A stretch of DNA of 64,000 nucleotides. It comes from a bacterium. Its GTDB lineage: Bacteria > SAR324 > XYD2-FULL-50-16. Location: positions 1-64,000 of the forward strand of contig JAVVEA010000014.1 in the NCBI GenBank assembly GCA_032250835.1, written 5' to 3'. Positions 2,908 to 60,105 of this stretch are shown in pieces (positions within the stretch are counted from its first letter, which is position 1; each line of letters opens with the position of its first letter). A program made the position numbers and the translations under genes. The notes beneath the pieces were generated by a model. The model had not been told where the DNA came from and did no database searches. It saw only the letters and a list, made by a program, of their open reading frames with translations.

Positions 2908-4416
2908 CTAGTTGGTTTTGTCAAAGTACGAAGAGCGTGTGTCGATCCCTTGGCGGGATTCCAGGTTGAGGTTTCCCTTTTCCACTGCACGCTTCAACCA
3001 CTCTTTTTCTAAGGTCGCTTTAAAGGCGAGTTTTTCCTTAACCAGCGTTTCTAACGAAAGACCGGCCAGCTTTTGGGCCTTTTCCTTGGTCGAAAAATCC
3101 GGTGCAGCGTAGTTGATGGCACCGTATTTTGCCAGAATCCGGACCAACTTTAGCCGCGCTTGCTGGGCTAGTTCGTTGGCCGAGGCCAAGAGCTTTAGCG
3201 TTTCTTCAGGCGCGTGAAAAAAGGAACCATGGCTTGCGATGGCGTAGTCCCAGCGCCACTGGGCGTGGCGGATATGGGTCTGGATGGCCTTTACTTCCGC
3301 TGCGCTAGCTCCTAGTTCTAGAGCCTTACCGGTTTCTAGGTGGGCTTTGGCCAGGTTGTCCATGGCGATTTCCATGAGCAGTTCCTTACGCTCTTTCTTT
3401 TCTCCTACGATGGCCATCAAGGTTTCCCCTTTCTCCCGGTGGCAGGTCAGGCAGGTTTGTTCTATATTCTCTAAAGGACTGCCCACTTTATGGCTTGAGT
3501 ATTTGATCGCCCCTTCTTGTACATAAGGCATGTGGCAGTCCGCGCAGGCAATGCCCTTTTTGGCGTGGATGCCCGTCCGGGCGATTTCCCAGCCGGGATG
3601 CTGGGCCTTGAGCATAGGCGTTTTTGAGATCTTGTGAGTCCAGTCTTTAAACTCAAGACCGTCATAATATGCCTCCATGGCCTCAGCGCTGGTGCCATTG
3701 GCCCAGGGAAAGGTTACTAGCTTGGCGACTTTCTCGGTTCCGGTGTCATCTTTCCAGGGAACATCTTTAAAGTAATACTCCGAATGGCACTGAGCGCATA
3801 CCAGCGAACGCTTCTCTTGGTGGGTAGAGTCTTCGAAGGTGCTGAGTCCGGCGGCCTGTAGCCCCCTGCTCAGGTGAGGCCGCCCCACGGCCAAAGACAT
3901 ATCCTTGGGGTCATGGCAATCGGCACAACCGATGGTGTTGACGATCTCGTCCCCATAGGCGGCCCATTTGCCCGAATAAAACTCCATTTCCCCGACCCGA
4001 TCAATCATGCGGACCACGTCAGGAGATTTACAGGCCCAACAAGACTTAGGCATCGGTCCCGTCGCCCCATCCACCGGAGCCCCGGTCCGTAGGGTGTTGA
4101 CGTTGTCTTGCAGCGCAAAGGCATGGCCGCGCGGTGCGTTATAGTCCTTCGCAAAGCCGTAACCAGCCCACAAAACCGGCAGCTGAGGCTTGGAATCCAA
4201 CATATCCTCGATATGGTCACTTTTAATGGTACCGTGCCAGGAAGAATACTGGCGCGGGAATTTCGCTTTATAAGACTCGTTTTTATAGGGCTCTGCCACT
4301 TGCGGGGTTTCATTGAGCGCCCTTCGTTCCTGCTCTTTGGTCAACACACTTTGGGTCATAAACGCCAAGGTCGCGATAACCGCCACCAACAATGCAATCG
4401 ACAATTTTATTTTCAT
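2908..4416 (-). CDS. nrfA: Cytochrome c552 ammonia-forming nitrite reductase
   Basis: CWACK active-site heme motif plus four CxxCH; KAQHP motif; N-terminal signal/anchor. Confidence 0.97.
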   Translation of the reverse strand: MKIKLSIALLVAVIATLAFMTQSVLTKEQERRALNETPQVAEPYKNESYKAKFPRQYSSWHGTIKSDHIEDMLDSKPQLPVLWAGYGFAKDYNAPRGHAFALQDNVNTLRTGAPVDGATGPMPKSCWACKSPDVVRMIDRVGEMEFYSGKWAAYGDEIVNTIGCADCHDPKDMSLAVGRPHLSRGLQAAGLSTFEDSTHQEKRSLVCAQCHSEYYFKDVPWKDDTGTEKVAKLVTFPWANGTSAEAMEAYYDGLEFKDWTHKISKTPMLKAQHPGWEIARTGIHAKKGIACADCHMPYVQEGAIKYSSHKVGSPLENIEQTCLTCHREKGETLMAIVGEKKERKELLMEIAMDNLAKAHLETGKALELGASAAEVKAIQTHIRHAQWRWDYAIASHGSFFHAPEETLKLLASANELAQQARLKLVRILAKYGAINYAAPDFSTKEKAQKLAGLSLETLVKEKLAFKATLEKEWLKRAVEKGNLNLESRQGIDTRSSYFDKTN

Positions 4417-8168: not shown

Positions 8169-8911
8169 ACCGACTCCTAAGTGGAACTGGTTGTGGTGGA
8201 AAACGGCTCTTTTCCCCCGGGCCGAAAAGAGTGTGGCACCAAAATTACTTGTGTTTAGTTTACAAAGAAAGAGTATTTAAGTTCAAGAATATTTTTATTA
8301 TTCAGAATATTAATGTTACCCCCCTCTTTAACTTAAGCTAATAGGGCGGGTAGAGGTCTTAGTTTTTTTAAGGACTATCTTAGACGTATTAAAAGGTTTG
8401 CCTATTGGAGTTGCTAGGGGCTTACTTAAAGAGACTGGGGTCTGATGATTTGGAGGTTTATGGCGGATCGCCCCAATGATCATTTGAAATATAAAACCTT
8501 ACCGTTACAGGCCTATCTATAGTCATCGGCGCCCAACTTCTGGCCGGTCACGCTACCTATCTTTGCAGGTTTATTTGCCCTACCTCCAGGGCCCGGCAGC
8601 CCAATGATCTCCAGAGGCAGCCGAAGACCCCTAGGGGGACAGCCGGTTGGCGGCGGTGGGGGTCTTAAAATAGGTTCTGCTTCATCTTTGCAGAAGCCGA
8701 TCATGCCCAGCCAATAATCCACAGGGAGGGAACGGGAAAAGTTTGTGATCGAACCAAATACTCTTGTTTTTTTCGATTCTATCTGGTTAATATCAAAGAT
8801 TTATCTTGATTTTTAATGAGGTCATTGCATTGATTTTAAAGGCCTTTATATGCTGTCCTTGGGTTTTGATAGGCTTTTGTTGAAATAAAGAGATTGACCA
8901 ACGGGACCTTG

Positions 8912-12509: not shown

Positions 12510-13943
12510 ATGAACTATCAGGTCAAGCAACTTACGCTGAGCCTAGCGGCGGCGCTCGCCCTTTGGACGGGCCCAGCTCAGGCACAAGAATTTGAATCGG
12601 ATTTTGCCTCGGAGTTCACTGAGGCGGCTGGGGCTATGGCTCCGGCCCAAAGCGCCGGTCCCGCCTGGACCGGTTTTTTGAGCTGGGAGCAGGGCGGTCA
12701 CTTTGGCGAGCCCTCAGAAAATGAGCGTCAGCGGGTTTTGGACCAGACCCGCTTTCGATTGAAGACCTCTAAATCCACCGAGGTAGGCAAGCTCGACTTG
12801 AAGCTCGACTTCGTCGATGACGGCGTCTTGAACGAGGCCTACCTGGACCTACGCGAAGGCCGCATCACCACCACGCCCTTTTCCTGGATGGACCTTTCGG
12901 TGGGCAAGCAGGTCAACACCTGGGGTGTCGGGGATATGCTCTTCATCAACGATCTGTTCCCGAAGAACTGGATGGCCATGTTCTTAGGAAAAGACATGGA
13001 GTTCATGAAGGACCCGGCCAATTCGGCGCGGGTCTCGACCTATCTTGGGCCGGTTACCTTTGATTTGGTCTACCATCCCCAATTCGCGCCGGACACCACG
13101 CCTAATGGCTGTGTGTTCGCTGTCTATAACCCCAACAGCCTGCTCGACGCTTCCCAGCCCGCCTTAGCGGGGAACGCCGGCGCTTGCGGCAGCCCGCCCG
13201 CCGCCAGCCTGCGCGACGGGCAATACGACCATGACGAGATCGCCGGACGCCTCAAGGCCAACTTAGGCGGCTTCGAGCTGGCCTTGTATGGCTACCATGG
13301 CTTTTATAAGAACCCGCGGGGCATGGAGTTGAGTGTCGACTCGAGCGGCGCGATGAGTCTCGCGGCCATCTATCCGCGCTTGAGTGTGCAGGGAGCCTCG
13401 CTCGAAGGGCAACTAGGCCCAGGCATCATGAACTTTGAGGCAGGCAATTACGACTCCCTTGACGATCCAGACGGCACCCAAGCGCTGATCGAAAACGGTG
13501 CCCTCAAAGGGCTGATCGGCTACCGCATGGACTTCAGTGCCCACTTCTCGGCGGGGATTCAGGTCTATCAAGAGACCATGAAGGAATACGCCGCCTATGA
13601 GCAGTCCATTGTGAGCATGTACCAGTCTATGGGCCTGAGCGAAGCTATGGCCGAGGCGCAGCCCGGCTATATCTACCGCAAGGAAGAACAACACCAGACC
13701 TATACCCTACGCTTGACGTTTAAGGCCCAGCAAGAAACGCTCTGGATCAACTTCTTCGGCTATCAGCGCCCCCAAGACAGAGACGGGTTTTATAAGCTCG
13801 ATCTGACCAAGCGGGCCAGTAACGCCCTGAGCATGACCTTCGGCGTCAACCTCTTTGAGGGGGATGTCCACTACCAAGACCGAGATTTTGGGATGCTCGC
13901 CGCCGAAGACAACGCCTTTTTGCGCCTGACCTACAACTACTAG
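12510..13943 (+). CDS. Putative outer-membrane beta-barrel partner of the MMPL/LolA-like pair
   Basis: Signal peptide ending AQA; VGKQVNTWGVGD motif; amphipathic strands; C-terminus LRLTYNY; AAGGA RBS. Confidence 0.75.
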   Translation: MNYQVKQLTLSLAAALALWTGPAQAQEFESDFASEFTEAAGAMAPAQSAGPAWTGFLSWEQGGHFGEPSENERQRVLDQTRFRLKTSKSTEVGKLDLKLDFVDDGVLNEAYLDLREGRITTTPFSWMDLSVGKQVNTWGVGDMLFINDLFPKNWMAMFLGKDMEFMKDPANSARVSTYLGPVTFDLVYHPQFAPDTTPNGCVFAVYNPNSLLDASQPALAGNAGACGSPPAASLRDGQYDHDEIAGRLKANLGGFELALYGYHGFYKNPRGMELSVDSSGAMSLAAIYPRLSVQGASLEGQLGPGIMNFEAGNYDSLDDPDGTQALIENGALKGLIGYRMDFSAHFSAGIQVYQETMKEYAAYEQSIVSMYQSMGLSEAMAEAQPGYIYRKEEQHQTYTLRLTFKAQQETLWINFFGYQRPQDRDGFYKLDLTKRASNALSMTFGVNLFEGDVHYQDRDFGMLAAEDNAFLRLTYNY

Positions 13944-38475: not shown

Positions 38476-38872
38476 GACATCAGCGGGGGGTCGGGTTTTA
38501 GCATCCCAACATTGGGGAAGGGGCGCTTTGGCCACAGTATCGCACAGCTTCAAAATGGGTGGTATCCCAAAGATTGGTTAAGGAGCGGTAAAAAACCCCT
38601 ATATTGGCTTACTCAGGGACCTTGGGAGGGGGCTGCTGGATTTGGGTGGATGGAAATTTAAAAAACCTCTTTTAAGGCCGACGCCCCCTTGCGCGCTCAT
38701 CTTCACCCCGGCGGCTCTGTATCTATTCCAAACAGGCGTCAAGCGCCGGCACCCCAAGTCCTGGCTGCGCTGGTTGGGGGAGTCTTTGGGACCTTGGCGC
38801 TTGGTTTCTTAGCTCAGCGCTGCTAGCTTTAGGCCCAAGTAACCCAACGCGCCAACCTTAGCTTCGAATCCT

Positions 38873-39346
38873 GTGGACGATCTGGCCCCCTTTACTTTGT
38901 ACATCGACGGAGACGCCTGCCCCAGGGCCGTCAAAGAAGTGATCTTTAAGGCCTGTATCAAGCGGCGCGTACCGGTCTGTTTGGTCGCCAACCGGATGGT
39001 GGAGATCCCGAAGATCCGTTGGATCGAAGCGGTGGTGGTTGAGGCTGGGCCTGATGTGGCGGACGCCTATATTGCAGAAAAGATCGGCCCCGGCGACCTG
39101 TCCGTGACCGCCGACATCCCCCTAGCGGCCCAGATTTTGGCCAAAGGGGCCATGGCCATCGACCACCGGGGCCGCGAGTTCACCCAGTCCAATATCCGCG
39201 AACGCCTCTCGATCCGCGACTTTTCGGCGGAACTGCGCGAGGCGGGCACCCAGACCGGCGGGCCCAAGGCCTTTGGCCCTAAAGAGCGCGAGGCTTTTGC
39301 CAACGCGCTAGATCGTTGCCTGACCCGCCGTTTCAACGCAAATTAA
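38873..39346 (+). CDS. yaiI: YaiI/YqxD family (UPF0178) protein
   Basis: YIDGDACP..K, DVADAYI, TADIPLA, TGGPKAF. Confidence 0.92.
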   Translation: MDDLAPFTLYIDGDACPRAVKEVIFKACIKRRVPVCLVANRMVEIPKIRWIEAVVVEAGPDVADAYIAEKIGPGDLSVTADIPLAAQILAKGAMAIDHRGREFTQSNIRERLSIRDFSAELREAGTQTGGPKAFGPKEREAFANALDRCLTRRFNAN

Positions 39347-39524
39347 ACCCCACCCCGAAAGGATTCTCCCTTCCTTTGGCGCTTCGGCCTCCCCTTCGGC
39401 AAGCTCACCCGCACAATAAGTTGCGCCCTTTCCTACAAACTTAAAGGGCAATCCCTGATTTCTTCGGACCGCGACAAGGGTTAAGCTAGGCTCAAGAATA
39501 AACCCATAGTTTCTTCGAGGAGGC

Positions 39525-39932
39525 ATGATGAACCGACCCCATACTTTTGCTAAAACAAATAATTCTGTGCCATTAGCTTCGGTCCACCCGGAACCGGCTA
39601 ATGAAGACAACCACCGTCTGCGGCAATTGGTGGTGCTGAGCATGCACCTTTCTTCGATTCTCTGGCGCAAAGCATCCCAGCGGGGCCGCGCCGAATTAGC
39701 CATGGAGTCCGGCCTGTGGACCGTGATCGCCCAGGTGGGTGGAAAGTTGTTGACCCAAACGATGGACCGACACTTTTCCCTAGTGACCTTGCCGGTAGAG
39801 CCAAACTACCGTTCGGTGATTTTGACGGCAAAATATGTGCTGCGCGCCGCCGAGGGCCTATCTTGGAGTGAAGAGGCCGAAAAACTGGAATTGGTTTGTT
39901 CCGAGTTGGAGCGTCGGCTCAAGGGCTTTTAA
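39525..39932 (+). CDS. Stand-alone ChiS-like DNA-binding domain protein
   Basis: GAGGAGG RBS; W......RAELAMESGLW...TMDRHF...LPVEPNY..VILTAKYVL. Confidence 0.75.
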   Translation: MMNRPHTFAKTNNSVPLASVHPEPANEDNHRLRQLVVLSMHLSSILWRKASQRGRAELAMESGLWTVIAQVGGKLLTQTMDRHFSLVTLPVEPNYRSVILTAKYVLRAAEGLSWSEEAEKLELVCSELERRLKGF

Positions 39933-39944
39933 ACCCAAAGGTAG

Positions 39945-40400
39945 TTGATGGAGTTCTCTCGTTGGATAGGACAAGCGCGGCCCATAGAGCAGATGGGGGT
40001 GGTGGAGTTTGATGCACAATACCGCAGGGTGGCGGGTCTGGCCAAACTACTAGAGCGCAGTTTTAAAAGCCCCCAAACGGCTCTCCTGGTCCCTTTACTG
40101 TTTGAAAACTTAAGGCTTTGTGCCCTGCGCTACTTTCGGTTTGAAGAAAAATTGTTGCTCTGCTTTAGGCCTGAAGAACAGCAGGAACACTTGCTGGACC
40201 ATGACTACTTGCAACGCAGCCTGAGCGAGCTCAGTCAAGCCTCTCCCCATCTCCCCTCCGGCCAGCTTGAAACCCGCAGTTTGGAGATCTTCGAATATTG
40301 GATCTACCAGCATATGGAACGCAAAGACCGGGCATTAGCCCAATGGCTCTGCGACCAAAATAAATTTTGCCAGCTCTACCTCCCCGTTCTCTGCGATTAG
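39945..40400 (+). CDS. Divergent bacteriohemerythrin-like protein
   Basis: MGVVEFDAQY, YFRFEE, HLLDH, W..QH...D spacing matches hemerythrin, with two His ligands replaced by Tyr. Confidence 0.7.
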   Translation: MMEFSRWIGQARPIEQMGVVEFDAQYRRVAGLAKLLERSFKSPQTALLVPLLFENLRLCALRYFRFEEKLLLCFRPEEQQEHLLDHDYLQRSLSELSQASPHLPSGQLETRSLEIFEYWIYQHMERKDRALAQWLCDQNKFCQLYLPVLCD

Positions 40401-40428
40401 CGGACGCAAACCGCTAGCTGCCCCTTAG
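40201..40428 (+). repeat. 228-bp direct repeat, left copy (3' end of hemerythrin-like gene + hairpin)
   Basis: Matches 46000-46227 with about 6 substitutions by hand alignment. Confidence 0.95.
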
Positions 40429-40455
40429 AATCAGAATCAGGTGACAGGAATCAAT

Positions 40456-40535
40456 AATCAGGTGGCAGTATGCTGATTTCCGATCAAATTTTAGGAACTG
40501 CACTGTTGCAAAAATAGGCATACTGCCACCCTATT
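40456..40535. repeat. 80-bp palindromic element A
   Basis: AATCAGGTGGCAGTATGC...GCATACTGCCACCCTATT; 64/80 identical to element B. Confidence 0.9.
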
Positions 40536-40812
40536 ACTATTGGTTTCATTCGCTGGGAGTGGGATTTTTATATTGATTAAAGATAACAAAAGAATAAATT
40601 CACTACCCCGTACCGGAACCGCCACCGAACTTTTTTTTGACATTTCCAAAGCTTTTGTGGAAACATCTGCCCTAGGGAAAATAGCCTATTCCTGATAAGG
40701 ATAATTCTTAATTTTACTTTTAAAGCGCCCAGGAAAAGCCGATTCCCTTGAAATAGCCGTTAAATCAACCGTTTTCTGTTAGGTGGACCATCTGTGTGAG
40801 GTGAGAAAATGA

Positions 40813-42324
40813 ATGCTTTTTATCCATTGGGTTTCGATAATGTTTTGGGTTACCTCCTGCGGCAACGCAAACCAGGGGGACCAAGGGACCGCTGCAAGCA
40901 GCGGGTATGAAGGGGGCAGCGGTGAAGACCACGAAGGCAGCGACGGCGGAACCGGCTCGACCCAAGGCACCAGTGAAGACCTTGCCGAACGGGGTAGCGA
41001 GTTGGGCGGAGCCGGAAACCTCCCGGCGGATGTTTTGCCCCGGTTGGTGAAAACCAAAGGCCCGATGAACAAGGTCTACTTCCACCCCAACCACATCCAA
41101 ACGGCCTCGATGATCACCGACGCCGATGGCCGGGTGCAAGCCCGCATCCGCCACTTGCCTTACGGTGAGGTAGACGTGCAAACGACGGTGGACGAAAAGC
41201 AATCGGCGACCCAATACGCCGCCTTCACGGGCCAGGAGATGGACGATTCTACGGGCTTGATCTACTACAACGCCCGTTATTACGACCCCAGCATCGGCCG
41301 CTTCATCAGCCCCGATTCGGTCATCGACGGCGACGGAACGGCGGCGATCCATTTCAACCGCTACGCCTACGTAGCCAACAATCCGATCAACTACAACGAC
41401 CCGACGGGGCACAACCTAGTGAAGTTCCAATTTTATAACGGAGGGACCGAATATGCGGTAACCCAAGCGCAATTGAGTAGTTATAACGAATATTATAGAA
41501 TCGATGGTAGGGGTGTCACAAAATCAGCGAATTGTTGGGGATGGAGTAGCTATTGTGAGTTGCTCTGGAGCGATTACCAGTCTGCCCTAGCCCAGGCCGA
41601 AGCCGACGCTCAGGCCGCTGAAGAAGCCGCAGCGGCAGCAGCTGCCGCCGCCGAAGCGGAAGCCGAGGCCCAAGCCGCAGCCGAAGAAGCCGCCCGCCTC
41701 GCCGAGTTGGAGCGCATCCGCTTAGAGCTGATCCGCCAAGGCAAGATAGACGCGGCCAACGCCTTTAAGGCCAACTACAAAACGCTGTTGCACAGTGGTA
41801 CGGACCTTTCGCAGTACTCCGCCAGTTCGGAGACTCAAGGTACTTACGAAGGCTCCGAGGGAGTAAAGCCTTCTGGTGATTTCAGGGACGCGGCCCGCAC
41901 TTCAGAGTTTTGGTTAGCAGTTGCTGTTGTTGTCGCGGTGGTAATAATATTTTTCTGCGCTCCGTGTGCTGCCGCTATTGGCCCGACTTTTCTTGGTACC
42001 GTGGGCGGTGCAATTGGCGGAGCCGTGTATGGTTGGGGGAGCGGAATCAACGTGAAGCACTATAGCGGAGAAGATTTATCGAATTACATAACAGAAAATG
42101 CGTTGATCGGAGCTTCTATCGGCGGGTTGTATGATGCTGGTTTTGCAGTAAAAGGCTTGATGAAAGACGGATTTCCTCTCTGGGAAAGTGTAGCCAGCGT
42201 TGGTATTTCCGGCTACTTGAAAGGTAAAGTGGCATCTGCTTCTTCTTTGCATCACAACGCTGCGAGTGCTGTCAGCTCGGCTGGCAGCACTATAAAGAGT
42301 GCAGGTAAAGCACTGGGTTTTTAA
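40813..42324 (+). CDS. Rhs-core protein without YD shell; lipobox-like N-terminus; C-terminal Ala/Glu helix, TM helix and glycine-zipper region
   Basis: FWVTSC; YFHPNHIQT..ITDADG, LPYGE, FTGQEMD..TGLIYYNARYYDPSIGRFISPD, NRYAYVANNPINYNDPTG. Confidence 0.88.
   Translation: MLFIHWVSIMFWVTSCGNANQGDQGTAASSGYEGGSGEDHEGSDGGTGSTQGTSEDLAERGSELGGAGNLPADVLPRLVKTKGPMNKVYFHPNHIQTASMITDADGRVQARIRHLPYGEVDVQTTVDEKQSATQYAAFTGQEMDDSTGLIYYNARYYDPSIGRFISPDSVIDGDGTAAIHFNRYAYVANNPINYNDPTGHNLVKFQFYNGGTEYAVTQAQLSSYNEYYRIDGRGVTKSANCWGWSSYCELLWSDYQSALAQAEADAQAAEEAAAAAAAAAEAEAEAQAAAEEAARLAELERIRLELIRQGKIDAANAFKANYKTLLHSGTDLSQYSASSETQGTYEGSEGVKPSGDFRDAARTSEFWLAVAVVVAVVIIFFCAPCAAAIGPTFLGTVGGAIGGAVYGWGSGINVKHYSGEDLSNYITENALIGASIGGLYDAGFAVKGLMKDGFPLWESVASVGISGYLKGKVASASSLHHNAASAVSSAGSTIKSAGKALGF
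41114..42061 (+). repeat. 948-bp near-identical duplication, copy 1 (copy 2 at 43085-44032)
   Basis: Constant offset of 1971 bp; the few substitutions I saw cluster near the 5' end. Confidence 0.95.
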
Positions 42325-42343
42325 TACCCGAGCTTGATTAATG

Positions 42344-42371
42344 GAACCTATGCGAGGAATCGCATAGGTTC
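42344..42371 (+). other. Perfect 12-bp hairpin between Rhs gene 1 and lipoprotein 1
   Basis: GAACCTATGCGA-GGAA-TCGCATAGGTTC. Confidence 0.7.
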
Positions 42372-42420
42372 TTGAACGCAACTTACCTTGTGTTTAAGCC
42401 TATTTGCAAAGGAACAGAAT

Positions 42421-43056
42421 ATGGAAAGGGTCAAAACGGAACAACAAATGGCCAAAATGTTTCAGACACTACGGTGCTGGGCCTATAAATATGCTGGGGC
42501 TGCTTTCTATGTAATAATGTTTGTTGGCTGTGCGCAGGTGTCGGACATTTACATGAATTACGATATGAAGAAGCCAAAAAGCGAAATCTGCACCCTGTTC
42601 ACAAAGGGACAAAAAACTGTCAGAACGGATGTAAACCAATTTTTTGGAGTCGACTTGATTGCTGTAGATGGCCAACTCATGCGGAACAGCAAGTTAATTC
42701 GAAAGGGAGAAACTAGTCCTCGGTATATTTCGGAACAAGACCCCTATATCCTCTATGGTGGCAAACAATATGAGTTTTCGATTGTGGAGGCCAGACTTAC
42801 CCCTGGTATTCATGATTTGGAAGTTCAATATCTTACAAATGGATTGCTTCCCGGACAGTTTCTGTATGCTAAAGTCAAGTTTATCAATTGGGAATGCAAG
42901 GCTGGGGAGCGGTACTACATATACAGTTCCAACGATGAGGTATTCAACCATTGGGGCGAACACAGATATTGGATAGAGGACGAGAATCAGGTTCTTTGGG
43001 AAGGCTGGAAATATCGATCAATAAATGAATTTACTTTTGATTTGTCCGGCCCCTAG
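42421..43056 (+). CDS. Lipoprotein, candidate immunity protein 1
   Basis: AAGGA RBS; lipobox FVGC-AQVSDIY; paralogous to the ORFs at 44555 and 45246. Confidence 0.75.
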   Translation: MERVKTEQQMAKMFQTLRCWAYKYAGAAFYVIMFVGCAQVSDIYMNYDMKKPKSEICTLFTKGQKTVRTDVNQFFGVDLIAVDGQLMRNSKLIRKGETSPRYISEQDPYILYGGKQYEFSIVEARLTPGIHDLEVQYLTNGLLPGQFLYAKVKFINWECKAGERYYIYSSNDEVFNHWGEHRYWIEDENQVLWEGWKYRSINEFTFDLSGP

Positions 43057-43084
43057 GCATCTTCTAGAGTTCAGATTAGAGTCT

Positions 43085-44322
43085 TCACCGACGCCGATGG
43101 CTGGGTGCAGGCCCGCATCCGCCACTTGCCTTACGGTGAGGTAGACGTGCAAACGACGGTAGACCAGAAGCAATCGGCGACCCAATACGCCGCCTTCACG
43201 GGCCAGGAGATGGACGATTCTACGGGCTTGATCTACTACAACGCCCGTTATTACGACCCCAGCATCGGCCGCTTCATCAGCCCCGATTCGGTCATCGACG
43301 GCGACGGAACGGCGGCGATCCATTTCAACCGCTACGCCTACGTAGCCAACAATCCGATCAACTACAACGACCCGACGGGGCACAACCTAGTGAAGTTCCA
43401 ATTTTATAACGGAGGGACCGAATATGCGGTAACCCAAGCGCAATTGAGTAGTTATAACGAATATTATAGAATCGATGGTAGGGGTGTCACAAAATCAGCG
43501 AATTGTTGGGGATGGAGTAGCTATTGTGAGTTGCTCTGGAGCGATTACCAGTCTGCCCTAGCCCAGGCCGAAGCCGACGCTCAGGCCGCTGAAGAAGCCG
43601 CAGCGGCAGCAGCTGCCGCCGCCGAAGCGGAAGCCGAGGCCCAAGCCGCAGCCGAAGAAGCCGCCCGCCTCGCCGAGTTGGAGCGCATCCGCTTAGAGCT
43701 GATCCGCCAAGGCAAGATAGACGCGGCCAACGCCTTTAAGGCCAACTACAAAACGCTGTTGCACAGTGGTACGGACCTTTCGCAGTACTCCGCCAGTTCG
43801 GAGACTCAAGGTACTTACGAAGGCTCCGAGGGAGTAAAGCCTTCTGGTGATTTCAGGGACGCGGCCCGCACTTCAGAGTTTTGGTTAGCAGTTGCTGTTG
43901 TTGTCGCGGTGGTAATAATATTTTTCTGCGCTCCGTGTGCTGCCGCTATTGGCCCGACTTTTCTTGGTACCGTGGGCGGTGCAATTGGCGGAGCCGTGTA
44001 TGGTTGGGGGAGCGGAATCAACGTGAAGCACTTAAGTGGGGAGGAGTTGAGTGCTTACATAGTTGAAAACGCGATGATCGGGGCATCGATTGGTGGGCTA
44101 TACGATGGATATAAAGCGATTGAAGGGGGGAGTACCATTGCGTATGAACTGATGAAAGGTTACGTGAACGGAGGCATAGTTGCTGGCTCGGCTCTGCAGC
44201 AAAACCTTACGAGCGGGGCTACGGCAGTCGGAAAGACAATAGGAAGTGTGGGGAAGTCATCTGTAAGCAGCGTTGGGGGTGGAGTTTCTCCAGTGAAGGA
44301 TTTAATCAAAAACTTAATGTAA
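43085..44322 (+). pseudogene. Orphan (5'-truncated) Rhs-core module with alternative C-terminal tip; ORF 43105-44322
   Basis: Starts inside the core at TDADG; no RBS or signal; shares sequence with copy 1 until 44032, then a different 96-aa tail. Confidence 0.8.
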
Positions 44323-44554
44323 GTGGCTTAACCCGAAGCCGATAGCAGTGTTGGCTATCCTGATTTGCCTTTCGCTTCATTGAGGATGTATTTTGGAGTG
44401 ATTTTAGAAATTATTCTCATAAAACTGAGGACCCGATCAACCTGTTGCCCTCAATGTGATTTAGATGAAGTAGGCGTTATTTAGGTGCTTTCGGTTTCGA
44501 AAGTAAAAAACGTTGGGGTTTACGCTAAAAACTCTTTTAAAATGGATTGCAGCA

Positions 44555-45181
44555 ATGACCCATCAGGCCAATAGACGACTTCAGCCGAATAGTGTTTTTC
44601 ATTTCATTGCAGCATCGTTGCTTTGCTTGGTGACTTCCTGCATGGCTCCGGTTTCGGATACTTATTTGAATTATCCAGAACCAAAAGCCGATAGCGAAGT
44701 CTGCATCGTCAAAACCTCACCGGGAGAGCAGACTGTTAGGACCGATGTGAAATCGGTACAAAACGGGGAGTTTTATTCGGTAGATAGTCAGTTGATGCGT
44801 ACCAGCAAACTGGTTCGATATGGGGAGACTTTGCCGAGAAATATTTCTGAAAGTGACCCCCAACTTTGGACCTACGAAGGCACCAAACATCCCTATCATG
44901 TTTATAAATTGAAATTAACCCCTGGAAGGTACCAATTAGTTGCCATTTTTCCCTACGAGTTAGACTCTATCCTAGAGCATAAATTGCATGATAAAATCAC
45001 CCTTAAAAACTTTGATTGCAAAGCAGGGGAGAGCTATCGTTTGTTTTATTCGTTGGATAAATTTCCTGAAAAGGAGGGCATGCGTCTTTTTTGGATGGAA
45101 GGGGAGCAGGGGGTAATTTGGGAAAGATGGAAACACAAAACTCAACGCGAAGCCTTGTTTGATCTCTCAGATGTTAAATAG
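44555..45181 (+). CDS. Lipoprotein, candidate immunity protein 2
   Basis: Lipobox VTSC-MAPVSDTY; VDSQLMR.SKL.R.GET.PR.ISE.DP, LTPG, CKAG..Y. Confidence 0.75.
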   Translation: MTHQANRRLQPNSVFHFIAASLLCLVTSCMAPVSDTYLNYPEPKADSEVCIVKTSPGEQTVRTDVKSVQNGEFYSVDSQLMRTSKLVRYGETLPRNISESDPQLWTYEGTKHPYHVYKLKLTPGRYQLVAIFPYELDSILEHKLHDKITLKNFDCKAGESYRLFYSLDKFPEKEGMRLFWMEGEQGVIWERWKHKTQREALFDLSDVK

Positions 45182-45245
45182 ATTATTTGAGGACGCAAAT
45201 TGAGGCCACAAACAGAGCGAATTCATGGTGAAATGAGCCAAAAAA

Positions 45246-45875
45246 ATGGATATGCAAAAGTTAAAAGAAAAGTTGGTTAGGAGCGGTTCCTATACGGGTA
45301 TGGCCCTCTTGTTTGCGGTCCTTTCGGCTTGCTCGCCGGTTTCGGATATTTACCTCAACTATGATGGGACCAAGCCGAAAAGTGAGGTATGCACCCTGCG
45401 GACTCAAGGAACCCACAGCATAAGAACGGATGTGGACCGGAAATATGGCATGAAGCTCATCGCTGTGGACGGTCAATTGATGCGCGATAGCCAGTTGATC
45501 CGGGTTGGAGAAACCACGCCGCGGTATATTTCAGAAAATGATCCCTATTTTGTTCAAGGTGGAGAACGACATTACCTTGTGACGGTTGTCGAAGCTCGGC
45601 TAACGCCAGGAAAGCACGATTTTGAAGTAGCCAACTTCACCGGTGGAAGCGGACCTCTCCCTGGGCAAATAGCGATCGACCACATAAAGTTTCTTAATTG
45701 GAATTGTAAAGCAGGCGTTACCTACCAAGTATTTTATTCCAACGACGAAGTTTTCGGTCATTTGCGTGAGTACAAATATTGGATTGAGGACGAAAACCGA
45801 GTTCTTTGGGAAGGGTGGAAACGTCTTTCGGTCCAAAATGTTACCTATGATTTGAGCAAAATTAAGGCACCTTGA
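45246..45875 (+). CDS. Lipoprotein, candidate immunity protein 3 (no adjacent Rhs tip)
   Basis: Lipobox LSAC-SPVSDIY; closest to lipoprotein 1 (IAVDGQLMR, VEARLTPG, YSNDEVF, YWIEDEN.VLWEGWK). Confidence 0.78.
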   Translation: MDMQKLKEKLVRSGSYTGMALLFAVLSACSPVSDIYLNYDGTKPKSEVCTLRTQGTHSIRTDVDRKYGMKLIAVDGQLMRDSQLIRVGETTPRYISENDPYFVQGGERHYLVTVVEARLTPGKHDFEVANFTGGSGPLPGQIAIDHIKFLNWNCKAGVTYQVFYSNDEVFGHLREYKYWIEDENRVLWEGWKRLSVQNVTYDLSKIKAP

Positions 45876-45919
45876 ACGGGCCAACATGTTTTACCTGCTT
45901 GTCATCGGGTGCCCAAAAA

Positions 45920-45999
45920 AATTAGGTGACAGCATACTGATTTCCGATCAAATTTCATGAACTGCGTTGTCGAGAAAATAGGCATGCTGTCGCCTGATT
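45920..45999. repeat. 80-bp palindromic element B
   Basis: AATTAGGTGACAGCATAC...GCATGCTGTCGCCTGATT; abuts the right direct repeat exactly. Confidence 0.9.
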
Positions 46000-46227
46000 A
46001 TGACTACTTACAACGCAGCCTGAGCGAGCTCAGTCAAGCCTCTTCCCATCTCCCCTCCGGCCAGCTAGAAACCCGCAGTTTGGAGATCTTCGAATATTGG
46101 ATCTACCAGCATATGAACCACAAAGACCGGGCATTAGCCCAATGGCTCTGCGACCAAAATAAATTTTGCCAGCTCTACCTCCCCGTTCTCTGCGATTAGC
46201 GGACGCAAACCGCTAGCTGCCCCTTAG
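46000..46227 (+). repeat. 228-bp direct repeat, right copy (truncated hemerythrin-like 3' end)
   Basis: Matches 40201-40428. Confidence 0.95.
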
Positions 46228-46509
46228 GCCCTCAAATGATAAACGGACGCTTTGGCTTCTTGGCTAAGCTTTCTTCATCCCCCATCCAAAAGGCTCCACC
46301 GGGCCGTCTGTGGGCCTGCCCAAACACCTACTGACGGGTCTTTGATCTGATCTTAAAGGAGGTTGTCCGGCTATCACCCGCTCTTTGTGGGGATACCTTT
46401 TGGGTTAGCTTGGCAAAGGGGTCAAATAGTGGTGAAATCTGGACATATTTCTGACATACTCACCGGGGTAAACAGGCGAACAGCGTGGGATCATAGGAAG
46501 AGTAGGGAC

Positions 46510-49517
<3,008 letters not shown>

Positions 49518-49521
<4 letters not shown>

Positions 49522-58087: not shown

Positions 58088-59304
58088 GCATTGTCCCGCT
58101 CTACGGCTAGTACTAGCTTAGAACCAATCTCCGGTGCCGCCGAAAAGACCCGGTTCCAGCTGGGCATGAAGGGGAGCTCATGTTGGGTGTTCGGGGGATC
58201 GAAAAACTGGCTCGCCGCCACGCTTAGGTTGTGGGCGAAGAGTTCCACCATCTTCTCTTCCTGGTGCCGGTCCAGTTGCAGACCGTTTAGTGCGGCATCG
58301 TTGGCATAGAGTTCCACGAAATCCAGGGCGATGCGCAGGTAGGTGGCGCGGATGGTGCGGAAGGTTTCGGTGGTGAAGACCTCGCCGAAGGTGGCCAGCT
58401 TGCGGAAGATCGCCGCAGAGATGTCGATGCTCATTTTGTTGAGCCCTTTACTCCGGTCCTCGGGATTAACGGTCTGGTGTTTGTGTTCGTAAGAATCAGC
58501 AATATCCACTTGGCAGATGCGGCCATAAGAATAGCTGCGTTGCACCTCGCTTAAAATCCCAATTTCTAAGCCCCAGTCGCTAGGGATGCGGATGTCTTTG
58601 ACCACGTCCGAGTGCATGGCGAATTCCCCGGCAAGAGCGTAACGGAAGCTGTCGAGGTATTCTAAAAACTCGTGGTGGCCAAAAACCTTCTGCAAGGCAC
58701 GGATCAAAGGAGTGACCAGCAACCGGCAGACCCGTCCGTTGAGCTTGCCGCTGTGGGCGCGGTAATAATAACCCTTGGCGAATTTGTAGTTAAAGTTGGG
58801 GTGGACGATAGGGTAGACCAGCCGGGCTAAGAGGCTACGGTTGTAGTCCACAATGTCGCAGTCGTGCAGCGCGATGGCTTTGGCGCGGCCCTGGGCCAGT
58901 AGGTAGCCATAACAACCCCAGACATTGCGGCCCTTTCCCGGTTCACGCGGAGACAACTGTAACTCGGCCAACTCGCCCCAGACCTCCTGAAGGCGCGGGC
59001 CGTCGTTCCATAAGATGCTGTGTGGTTGGTTTAGCTTGGCGAAAAACTCCCGGGCAAATTCATATTGCCGTTCGTCGGCCTGATCTAAGCCGATCACGAT
59101 TTCATCTAGATATTGGACCTTGGATAGTTCCTCAATAATCCTCGGCAGGGCGTCGCCTTCAAGCTCGCTAAAGAGGCTGGGCAGCAACAGGCCAATGGGG
59201 CGCTTTTTTCGGTAGCGCATCAAGTCGGCTTCGAGGTCTTCGGTGGGCCGCTGGCTGAGGTTGTGCATGGTGGCGATCACGCCATTTTGGAAAAAATCAC
59301 CCAT
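58084..59304 (-). CDS. Glucosyl-3-phosphoglycerate synthase-like glycosyltransferase
   Basis: MGDFFQNG, PGKGRNVW, HDCD, GRVCRL, YALAGEF, DWGLEIG, YEHKHQ. Confidence 0.82.
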   Translation of the reverse strand: MGDFFQNGVIATMHNLSQRPTEDLEADLMRYRKKRPIGLLLPSLFSELEGDALPRIIEELSKVQYLDEIVIGLDQADERQYEFAREFFAKLNQPHSILWNDGPRLQEVWGELAELQLSPREPGKGRNVWGCYGYLLAQGRAKAIALHDCDIVDYNRSLLARLVYPIVHPNFNYKFAKGYYYRAHSGKLNGRVCRLLVTPLIRALQKVFGHHEFLEYLDSFRYALAGEFAMHSDVVKDIRIPSDWGLEIGILSEVQRSYSYGRICQVDIADSYEHKHQTVNPEDRSKGLNKMSIDISAAIFRKLATFGEVFTTETFRTIRATYLRIALDFVELYANDAALNGLQLDRHQEEKMVELFAHNLSVAASQFFDPPNTQHELPFMPSWNRVFSAAPEIGSKLVLAVERDNA

Positions 59305-59319
59305 AAAGGCTCTCCTTTT

Positions 59320-60105
59320 TTAAAATCCAAAGTATTGTTGCATTGCCTGACACCACCCCGTTGGCCCCGCCCCTTCGGGGCGCAAAACCTGCCCGGAATG
59401 GTGCAATTTTAAGGGGGCATTTTCCTGGGCACTTAAAACCACCGCCACGTTGGCCGCTTCGAGCATGCCAATATCATTGGGGCTGTCGCCCAAGGCGATG
59501 GTGACCGGTTTTTGGTCCCACATCTTTTGGTATCTACCGCTTAAAGAAATCAGGGCTCCGGCTTTATCGGTGGGGCCCATTAGGTGCCAAAACCGCCCGC
59601 CCCGGACCAGCTTGTAGCCCGCCACTTGGGCTGCATGGGCCAATTCTTTGGCCGCCTCGGGGCGGTCTTGCCATAACAAAGGCTCGCTAAATTCACGCTC
59701 TTTGGCCTGTTGGGCTCGCTCGAGCGGAAGCCCGGTGGATTGGGCGACTTCTTCGGCAGACATACGGTCAAAACCCACAAATTTGTATTGGTCATAATAA
59801 GGAGCAATGAAATCCAACAATTCCGCCCTAGTGGCCCCTAAGGTTTCGGCTCGCAAGGGACCTCGGCGGCCCTCGAAATAGCCTTCGGGGAGGTAGATGC
59901 CCCCGCCGTTTTCGCTAACAAAGGGGTGTTGTAGGTCCAATTCTTGTTGCAGGTCCTTCATTTCCGAAGCCGTCTTGCTGCTCACCAGCACCACCGGGAT
60001 CGATTGGCTAGCGAGCCAATCTAAGGCGGGACGGGCGGCTTGGTAAGAATAGCTATGGTGGTCTAAGAGGGTCCCGTCTAAATCGGTGAAGATCAGGTGG
60101 TTCAT
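59320..60105 (-). CDS. HAD-IIB mannosyl/glucosyl-3-phosphoglycerate phosphatase
   Basis: FTDLDGTLLD, SSKT, ENGG, GGRFWH, LGDSPND. Confidence 0.9.
   Translation of the reverse strand: MNHLIFTDLDGTLLDHHSYSYQAARPALDWLASQSIPVVLVSSKTASEMKDLQQELDLQHPFVSENGGGIYLPEGYFEGRRGPLRAETLGATRAELLDFIAPYYDQYKFVGFDRMSAEEVAQSTGLPLERAQQAKEREFSEPLLWQDRPEAAKELAHAAQVAGYKLVRGGRFWHLMGPTDKAGALISLSGRYQKMWDQKPVTIALGDSPNDIGMLEAANVAVVLSAQENAPLKLHHSGQVLRPEGAGPTGWCQAMQQYFGF

Follow-up and report, generated by a model that had tools for sequence, protein, structure and literature searches.

The stretch of DNA analyzed here (the window) comprises the first 64,000 nucleotides of contig JAVVEA010000014.1 from a bacterium of the SAR324 lineage (GenBank assembly GCA_032250835.1) and contains a gene cassette of 5.6 kb, positions 40429-45999, that lies behind an intact gene for a hemerythrin-like protein (hem) and is framed by two copies of the tail of that gene. 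The two tail copies form a 228-nt direct repeat with 97% identity, and between them two 84-nt hairpin units, called A and B, are found in direct orientation and are 80% alike, each with a 32-nt spacer between 25-nt arms that are 84% complementary (Table 1). The outermost arms, 26 nt each and 81% complementary, are inverted repeats of one another across the whole insert, and the insert opens with AATCAG (40429-40434) and closes with CTGATT (45994-45999). The junction between hairpin B and the right repeat copy is at 45999/46000, with a single A common to both. An earlier interpretation made from the letters of the window alone (the sequence-only reading) had described this combination of direct repeat, twin hairpins, and AATCAG/CTGATT ends, and all of these elements are present where it had placed them. 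The number of differences between the repeat copies, which it had estimated at about 6, is exactly 6 (repeat positions 11, 45, 68, 117, 119, and 121), all of them within the first 121 nt, and the final 107 nt are the same in both copies. Its description of the insert as free of recombinases also stands, given that none of the 24 open reading frames (ORFs) of at least 50 aa in the insert matched a recombinase or transposase family. Profile searches found no match to PF00589 or PF01797 anywhere on the 92-kb contig of the window (C5; contigs of the assembly are cited by such numbers below), and an Rfam search of positions 39500-46600 with E-values up to 0.1 gave no match. In a whole-genome search, the 228-bp repeat was confined to these two sites and the cassette was found as a single copy.

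Table 1. Features of the hem cassette and its surroundings (positions in the window) and other loci with duplicated gene parts in the same genome (contig numbers).
Feature	Location	Strand	Description
Hemerythrin-like (hem) gene, 151 aa, intact	39945..40400	+	ORF; last 200 nt lie in left repeat copy
Left repeat copy	40201..40428	+	3' end of hem plus 28 nt with small palindrome TAGCGG...CCGCTA
Stacked partial REP heads	40429..40452	+	AATCAG, then AATCAGGTGACAGG; outer side of hairpin A
Hairpin A	40453..40536	+	REP doublet, REPIN-like
Orphan Rhs module 1, 503 aa	40813..42324	+	TIGR03696, 87.5 bits (cut-off 32.5)
Lipoprotein-like putative immunity gene 1, 222 aa	42388..43056	+	translation; no family match; GC 0.42-0.46
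Orphan Rhs module 2, 405 aa	43105..44322	+	TIGR03696, 87.6 bits (cut-off 32.5)
Lipoprotein-like putative immunity gene 2, 222 aa	44513..45181	+	38% identical to gene 3
Lipoprotein-like putative immunity gene 3, 209 aa	45246..45875	+	56% identical to gene 1
Hairpin B	45917..46000	+	REP doublet; outer end abuts right repeat copy exactly
Right repeat copy	46000..46227	+	5'-truncated hem tail in the same frame, then original downstream DNA
CHASE-PAS histidine kinase with receiver domain	46363..49521	+	flanking gene, outside the cassette
RNase_T-type gene	C5:77035-82059 (outside the window)		repeat 233-241 bp; cargo GDSL lipase, SxtJ-like, carbamoyltransferase
164-aa ORF	C17		repeat at least 180 bp; cargo GNAT
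relA/spoT	C9:71647-76354		tail present three times, each to the stop codon; two cassettes between
NiFe hydrogenase	C43		repeat 125 bp; cargo HicB
148-aa ORF	C22:309302-311221		repeat 130 bp, 87%; cargo 496-aa AAA_14/DUF4143 ATPase; no REP at edges
purL	C1		repeat 122 bp, internal gene piece; cargo DUF6932-HTH (helix-turn-helix) pair plus PIN fragment
Rhodanese-rubrerythrin gene	C14		repeat 158 bp; cargo HigBA

The hem protein matches the Hemerythrin family PF01814 (E 0.003) and TIGR02481 (E 3e-11), in both cases below the cut-off, and the translated right copy shares 93% amino-acid identity with hem residues 84-151. An 80-aa ORF (45957-46199) begins with an ATG inside hairpin B and runs in frame into this displaced hemerythrin-like tail. 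When folded as single-stranded DNA, hairpin A reaches -20.3 kcal/mol (z -5.9) and hairpin B -15.8 kcal/mol (z -4.2), and 0 of 200 shuffles folded as well as either of them. Between the two hairpins, two base pairs are changed on both sides in a compensatory manner.

The layout of the cargo is, as far as its translations tell, that of orphan Rhs toxin/immunity modules. Module 1 combines a lipobox-like N-terminus and the Rhs core end with a C-terminal region of about 300 aa, in which an Ala/Glu-rich stretch is accompanied by glycine-rich hydrophobic segments, and its presumed toxin mode is read from this composition only. The two modules share a 1023-nt repeat that is 97% identical (41114-42136 and 43085-44107) and diverge only at the extreme C-terminus. 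For the three lipoprotein-like genes, a putative role in immunity is suggested by their position and their lipobox-like signals. Family-profile searches gave no match for them, and none of the 23 other genomes of the order (24 including this one) encodes a member of this immunity-like protein family. Their GC content is low (0.42-0.47 vs 0.53-0.60 in the flanks), which argues for a foreign origin of the cassette. Full-length Rhs frames are found on other contigs (C39:102-356(-) and C14:48575-48823(+)). Both of these frames, open over 1884 and 1968 aa, hit contig ends at the core/toxin boundary, and their toxin tips and immunity genes are therefore unassembled.

Hairpins A and B are doublets of repetitive extragenic palindromes (REPs), similar to the REP doublets forming hairpins known as REPINs, and belong to a system of a known kind that is formed by REPs and a REP-associated tyrosine transposase (RAYT). 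We assign them to a REP/REPIN-RAYT system because the motif is dispersed, the doublets fold, the genome has a single Y1 transposase gene that is flanked by REPs, and this arrangement is kept in relatives, in line with the defining features of such systems as far as they are summarized in PMC3390384. Tracing the hairpin through the genome, as the sequence-only reading had proposed, gave a divided result: The complete 84-nt unit occurs only twice, but its arm is a dispersed motif of about 26 nt, (A/T)AATCAGGTGACAG(T/C)ATACC(T/A)ATTT. With up to 3 mismatches, the REP 18-mer AATCAGGTGACAGTATAC is found 42 times in the genome compared to 0, 3, and 2 times in three shuffles, and nhmmer reports 66 matches; a control with the reversed pattern gave 0 matches in 19 of 19 genomes. 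Other doublets of the genome differ in how well they fold relative to shuffles (C41:117514-117594, z -4.9; C38:151312-151415, weaker with z -2.9). Partial REP heads are stacked outside 7 of the 42 REPs compared to 62 of 20000 random sites (0.3%), which suggests that DNA joining occurs at the outer side of REPs. The head at 40429..40452 outside hairpin A has 3 mismatches to the REP 18-mer and an nhmmer E-value of 0.66.

A second search suggested by the sequence-only reading, for a Y1/RAYT gene beside copies of the hairpin, was rewarded. The only Y1_Tnp (PF01797) gene in the genome (C43:2516-3175, 219 aa) lies between inverted REPs at C43:2440-2463(+) and 3167-3194(-) whose AATCAG ends point outward. 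Its product matches Pfam Y1_Tnp with 42.9 bits (cut-off 23), shows the HIH (HUH) and YVERNP (Y) motifs, and matches the curated RAYT model NF047646 with E 2.6e-17 and 63 bits, under the cut-off of 80; a PDB sequence search with this RAYT-like protein gave no match. In the relative G015, a RAYT ortholog with 63% identity (C33:12989-13642 of that genome) is located between REPs at 12905(+) and 13678(-), and in the relative G017 a RAYT gene (C173:3450-3830) is located between REPs at 3310(+) and 3868(-). A third relative, G008, encodes an ortholog with 59% identity without a REP match to this pattern. The REP motif is also present in other records of SAR324 metagenome-assembled genomes (MAGs), and the genome of G015 (about 8 Mb) has at least 68 copies of the same REP, most of them in tight doublets whose spacer is only 4 nt long.

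REPs of the genome under study also cluster in arrays of accessory genes (C38:60981-63172 and C14:5318-8735), where they separate toxin-antitoxin pairs (TumE/HVO_A0114, CopG-type, and ParE/Phd) and are found on both sides of a gene for a 455-aa TIR-domain protein. A second dispersed repeat family has units of about 90-350 nt that are 80-98% alike and often lie at contig ends and near REPs. Its sites include C1:1-530, C10:31036-31543 and 58969-59419, C33:57262-58298, C38:81020-82065 and 150312-150847, and C22:329385-329894, 332728-333075, and 338743-339411, among others.

The hem cassette has counterparts elsewhere in this genome, which holds eight or more cassettes of this type. By comparing the genome with itself and annotating the matches, we found at least 7 other loci at which 122-241 bp of the 3' part of a gene are duplicated around 1-5 kb of accessory genes (Table 1), and at all eight loci including hem the cargo is preceded by the intact gene and followed by the truncated copy. 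A 391-bp pair on C38 and a 2.57-kb tandem repeat on C11, neither with a gene-tail pattern, were left out of this count, as were two pairs on C33 that overlap a many-copy repeat. The C38 pair (C38:197517-205692, beside fliM; 99.5% identity) overlaps no recognizable gene tail and encloses 7.4 kb in which two 691-aa Big_5/ice-binding-like paralogs are accompanied by an OmpA-family gene and a Crp-type regulator. At the RNase_T locus, the copies are 94-95% alike with 4.5 kb between them, the displaced copy carries a 1-nt indel, and the intact gene stops about 20 codons before the displaced copy would. The two relA/spoT cassettes encode a DUF2335 protein and a methyltransferase with a DUF1848 protein, respectively, and the left edges differ among the relA copies. 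A gene for a Xer-like tyrosine recombinase begins 171 nt past the last relA/spoT copy, and 73 nt behind this gene the contig ends. This recombinase has no ortholog in the family's 18 relatives, and we therefore view it as accessory. Five of the eight duplication loci lack a REP at the boundary, and no common end motif was seen among these non-REP cassettes. The other cassettes hold toxin-antitoxin pairs, a DUF4143 ATPase, a GNAT enzyme, or carbamoyltransferase genes, so that the architecture shows no specificity for toxins, and the toxin-cassette mobilization system that the sequence-only reading had considered finds no support in this respect.

At three loci, hem, purL, and rhodanese, the outer end of a REP lies no more than 6 nt from the repeat boundary. 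Hairpin B directly meets the truncated hem copy, with a stacked REP head at the other joint; at purL a REP at C1:81915 abuts the copy ending at 81914; and at the rhodanese locus a REP at C14:8715 abuts the copy ending at 8712. When 42 REP ends were placed randomly, the mean number of coincidences within 6 nt was 0.009 (genome-wide) or 0.045 (noncoding DNA), and a coincidence at three loci was obtained in 0 of 20000 draws, although the rhodanese pair came from a search of REP flanks and the independent count is thus two loci. The polarity is constant at all three joints, with the intact gene followed by cargo, the REP (...CCTGATT), and the truncated gene copy. Together with the partial heads stacked outside other REPs, this suggests that the recombining DNA ended, or was closed, at a REP terminus, and the exact match of REP ends with duplication joints is a new and unexplained detail. 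CCTGATT lies 0 to 5 nt away from the joint, depending on the locus, and the three joints have no target in common. In the relative G015, 16 regions covering about 270 kb of the genome gave 88 REP hits and did not reproduce the gene-tail pattern. Three REP abutments of another kind were seen in these regions, where the abutting repeats are either the 5' regions of paralogous genes or AT-rich DNA that follows two different genes.

How the repeat copies came to differ bears directly on their origin. A duplication made at insertion would be identical at birth, and, as the copy without a function decays, about three quarters of its later changes would be expected to be nonsynonymous. Pooled over nine repeat pairs, synonymous differences (62) outnumber nonsynonymous ones (49), although synonymous sites make up only 23% of the total (pN/pS 0.24, binomial P 9e-14). 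This synonymous bias suggests that the copies diverged mostly as working genes in different lineages and that one of them arrived with the cargo. By their substitution pattern, the repeat copies look like two alleles that were brought together, not like a fresh target duplication. For hem by itself, the count of 2 synonymous and 4 nonsynonymous changes is too low to decide. The sequence-only reading had taken the 228-bp repeat for an unusually long transposition duplication, and this view is not supported, in light of both the pooled synonymous bias and the gene-tail duplications at no fewer than seven further loci, five of which have no REP at the boundary.

We favor, tentatively and with slightly less than even confidence, an insertion-duplication of a known kind as the best explanation, in which recombination took place in the gene tail with DNA from a related lineage. 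The cassette would already have been located 28 nt behind the same hemerythrin-like gene in the donor lineage, and the donor DNA would have carried the last ~200 nt of that gene and was probably closed into a circle with its joint at the outer end of hairpin B. One crossover within the gene tail with a cassette-free chromosome would then have produced an intact gene, the cassette, a 5'-truncated tail, and the original downstream DNA, and the 228-bp repeat would represent two gene-tail copies of separate origin instead of the footprint of a staggered cut. Duplications by this route are documented for E. coli, where 56 of 60 recombinants from single crossovers of a circle carried them, with lengths of 109-950 bp for the 14 that were sequenced (PMC3240628). 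Of the two routes named by the sequence-only reading, the circular intermediate would still readily yield the repeat, and a REP-terminal end would most obviously be made through nicking by the RAYT. The data directly show that the hairpins are REP doublets with a cognate RAYT-like gene in trans, that the duplication architecture recurs in the genome, that differences between repeat copies are biased to synonymous sites, and what the cargo consists of, whereas the circular form, the donor lineage, and this contribution of the RAYT are elements that we infer.

Several points weigh against an insertion-duplication from a related lineage. No donor, empty site, or circle was seen, with 40 relatives searched, none of which belongs to the same genus, and no public sequencing run listed for positions 38600-47600; a hem ortholog is absent from the 18 genomes of the family, where only paralog-like matches with about 25% identity were detected. 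Metagenome scans with the hem protein and with an alignment of the immunity proteins also gave no confirmed relative. The 6 differences of the hem pair cannot separate an allelic origin from decay after duplication, and the two hairpins, being only 80% alike, either predate the repeat by far or do not share one origin. Moreover, the bias of all eight loci to gene 3' ends is also expected from site-specific integrases, and a plain single crossover gives no reason why the joint should fall at a REP end at three loci.

The bias to gene 3' ends leads to the strongest competitor, site-specific integration, in which the cassette would be the remnant of an integrative element or would resemble a cis-mobilizable element (CIME), with an attachment (att) site that brings a surrogate gene 3' end and a tyrosine recombinase that acted in trans or has since been lost. 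We find this possible but doubtful. Integrative and mobilizable elements (IMEs) do integrate into the 3' ends of protein genes with a repeat that includes the gene end, and CIMEs retain attL and attR after loss of the integrase (PMC5704250). At relA/spoT, each of the three tails runs to the stop codon, and the gene for the accessory Xer-like recombinase begins 171 nt further on. All eight loci duplicate the 3' part of a gene without disrupting it, the 228-bp repeat of hem closes with a small palindrome behind the stop codon, and a surrogate gene end from another host would yield the same synonymous bias. However, a recombinase is near only one of the eight loci, without any PF00589 match on the window's contig, and the repeats are long with 122-241 bp. 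The left edges at relA are unequal, and the purL copy (an internal 122-nt piece) and the RNase_T repeat (ending about 20 codons before the original stop) are therefore not designed surrogate ends. REP ends at the joints are not accounted for either. We rank the homologous route over the site-specific one because of the recombinase at one of eight loci, the differing relA edges, the internal purL piece, and the short RNase_T repeat, yet the margin between the two is not large.

An involvement of the RAYT that goes beyond supplying a DNA end would account for the REP ends and lies close to the HUH/RAYT-like enzyme acting in trans that the sequence-only reading had suggested. Of that proposal, the enzyme has gained substance through the cognate REP-flanked RAYT-like gene on C43, while the 228-bp repeat as a footprint of transposition is not supported. 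If the RAYT cut the outer end of a REP and transferred it into a nearby or homologous gene, with the other side completed by homologous recombination or replication, the REP ends at the repeat boundaries of three loci, the constant order from intact gene to truncated copy, and the heads stacked outside 7 of 42 REPs would all fit. The AATCAG ends of the cassette point outward like those flanking the RAYT gene itself, and base pairing was preserved between hairpins A and B, as their two compensatory changes show. We nevertheless consider a RAYT-made joint unlikely, given that most duplication loci (5 of 8) have no boundary REP, the CCTGATT-joint distance is variable, the rhodanese pair is not independent, the three abutments in G015 are of another kind, and the cassette is single-copy; Y1 transposases of the type of insertion sequences (ISs) IS200/IS605 also make no target duplication to our knowledge. 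Far less probable still is classical composite transposition, in which two hairpins resembling miniature inverted-repeat transposable elements (MITEs) would have moved the cargo and the 228 bp would be a true target-site duplication. The 26-nt outermost inverted repeats and the direct contact of repeat and insert would fit, but we know of no transposase class that makes duplications of 228 bp, the mainly synonymous differences of the pooled pairs speak against copies identical at birth, no second cassette copy exists in the genome, and the only enzyme of the genome tied to the hairpin repeat is of the Y1 type. An assembly artefact, with two strain variants threaded into one contig of this draft and probably metagenome-derived genome, is at the very bottom of our ranking. 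The genome is in 43 contigs, related records are MAGs, and the repeat copies differ as strain variants would, but both novel junctions (repeat to AATCAG and CTGATT to repeat) would have to exist in some strain, no path through two variants yields the observed order as far as we can reason, and the same order is found at the seven or more other loci with divergence of up to 17%.

Integrase-less cassettes with repeats of gene 3' ends (CIMEs, PMC5704250) and duplications by single crossovers (PMC3240628) are already known. Different from this is the role of the REP ends. The usual view of REPIN-RAYT systems is that of a closed partnership, inherited vertically, in which nothing but the hairpins is moved, and among the literature titles and abstracts searched we found none linking REPINs or RAYTs to cargo; here, REP ends form the edge of gene cassettes at three loci of a genome that holds no fewer than eight integrase-poor cassettes, each between two copies of a gene tail. 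If the link were causal, REP ends would be an entry route for toxin-immunity, toxin-antitoxin, and defense-like genes where classical mobile elements are few. It is conceivable, though again improbable, that REP ends serve as active joining points, with the RAYT nicking the outer end, the freed end being joined into a gene tail directly or upon closure of a circle, and homologous recombination completing the process. If true, selfish cassettes such as Rhs toxin/immunity modules, HigBA, or the DUF6932-HTH pair would be captured and passed between related strains, leaving a gene-tail duplication of 120-230 bp as a scar, and the supposedly domesticated REPIN-RAYT systems would gain a gene-moving role. 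Even without a causal role of REPs, gene-tail duplications are a searchable scar of recently gained cassettes in uncultured marine bacteria, and the synonymous-site test can tell united alleles from target duplications without the need for an empty site.

Among known systems, orphan Rhs-CT modules resemble the cargo in the TIGR03696 core end, the variable C-terminal region, and the small downstream gene. Such modules are usually found downstream of a full-length rhs gene, whereas the upstream neighbor of this cassette is the hemerythrin-like gene, and module 1 carries a lipobox-like start of its own. With IS200/IS605 elements, the locus shares hairpin ends that are recognized by the Y1 enzyme family and the lack of long terminal inverted repeats of the DDE type, but the cassette has no internal transposase, is single-copy, and is flanked by the 228-bp repeat. 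An IS200/IS605-type transposon with cargo was thus rejected in view of the single copy, the 228-bp repeat, and the absence of a common target at the three joints.

The resemblance to CIMEs and IMEs lies in a recombinase-free cassette with direct repeats that include the end of an undisrupted target gene and, at relA/spoT, in tandem tail copies with a recombinase gene on one side. In contrast, the repeats of this genome are far longer than usual att cores, some of them are internal gene pieces, and the hem locus yielded no cognate integrase. Insertion-duplication of the Campbell type agrees with the locus in the direct duplication of a contiguous chromosomal piece around foreign DNA and in the intact upstream copy that is left by a fragment with the 3' end of a gene. 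It differs in that the work of PMC3240628 used an engineered plasmid, while the circle proposed for hem is hypothetical and would have its joint at a REP end. Finally, the system shares with REPtrons the tens of motif copies, the inverted hairpin doublets, and the one REP-flanked Y1/HUH gene per genome. Different from REPtrons are the low copy number of about 45-65 compared to hundreds in Pseudomonas, the 32-nt spacer of the window hairpins, and, above all, two doublets that enclose 5.4 kb of genes with a REP end that is the joint of a duplication.

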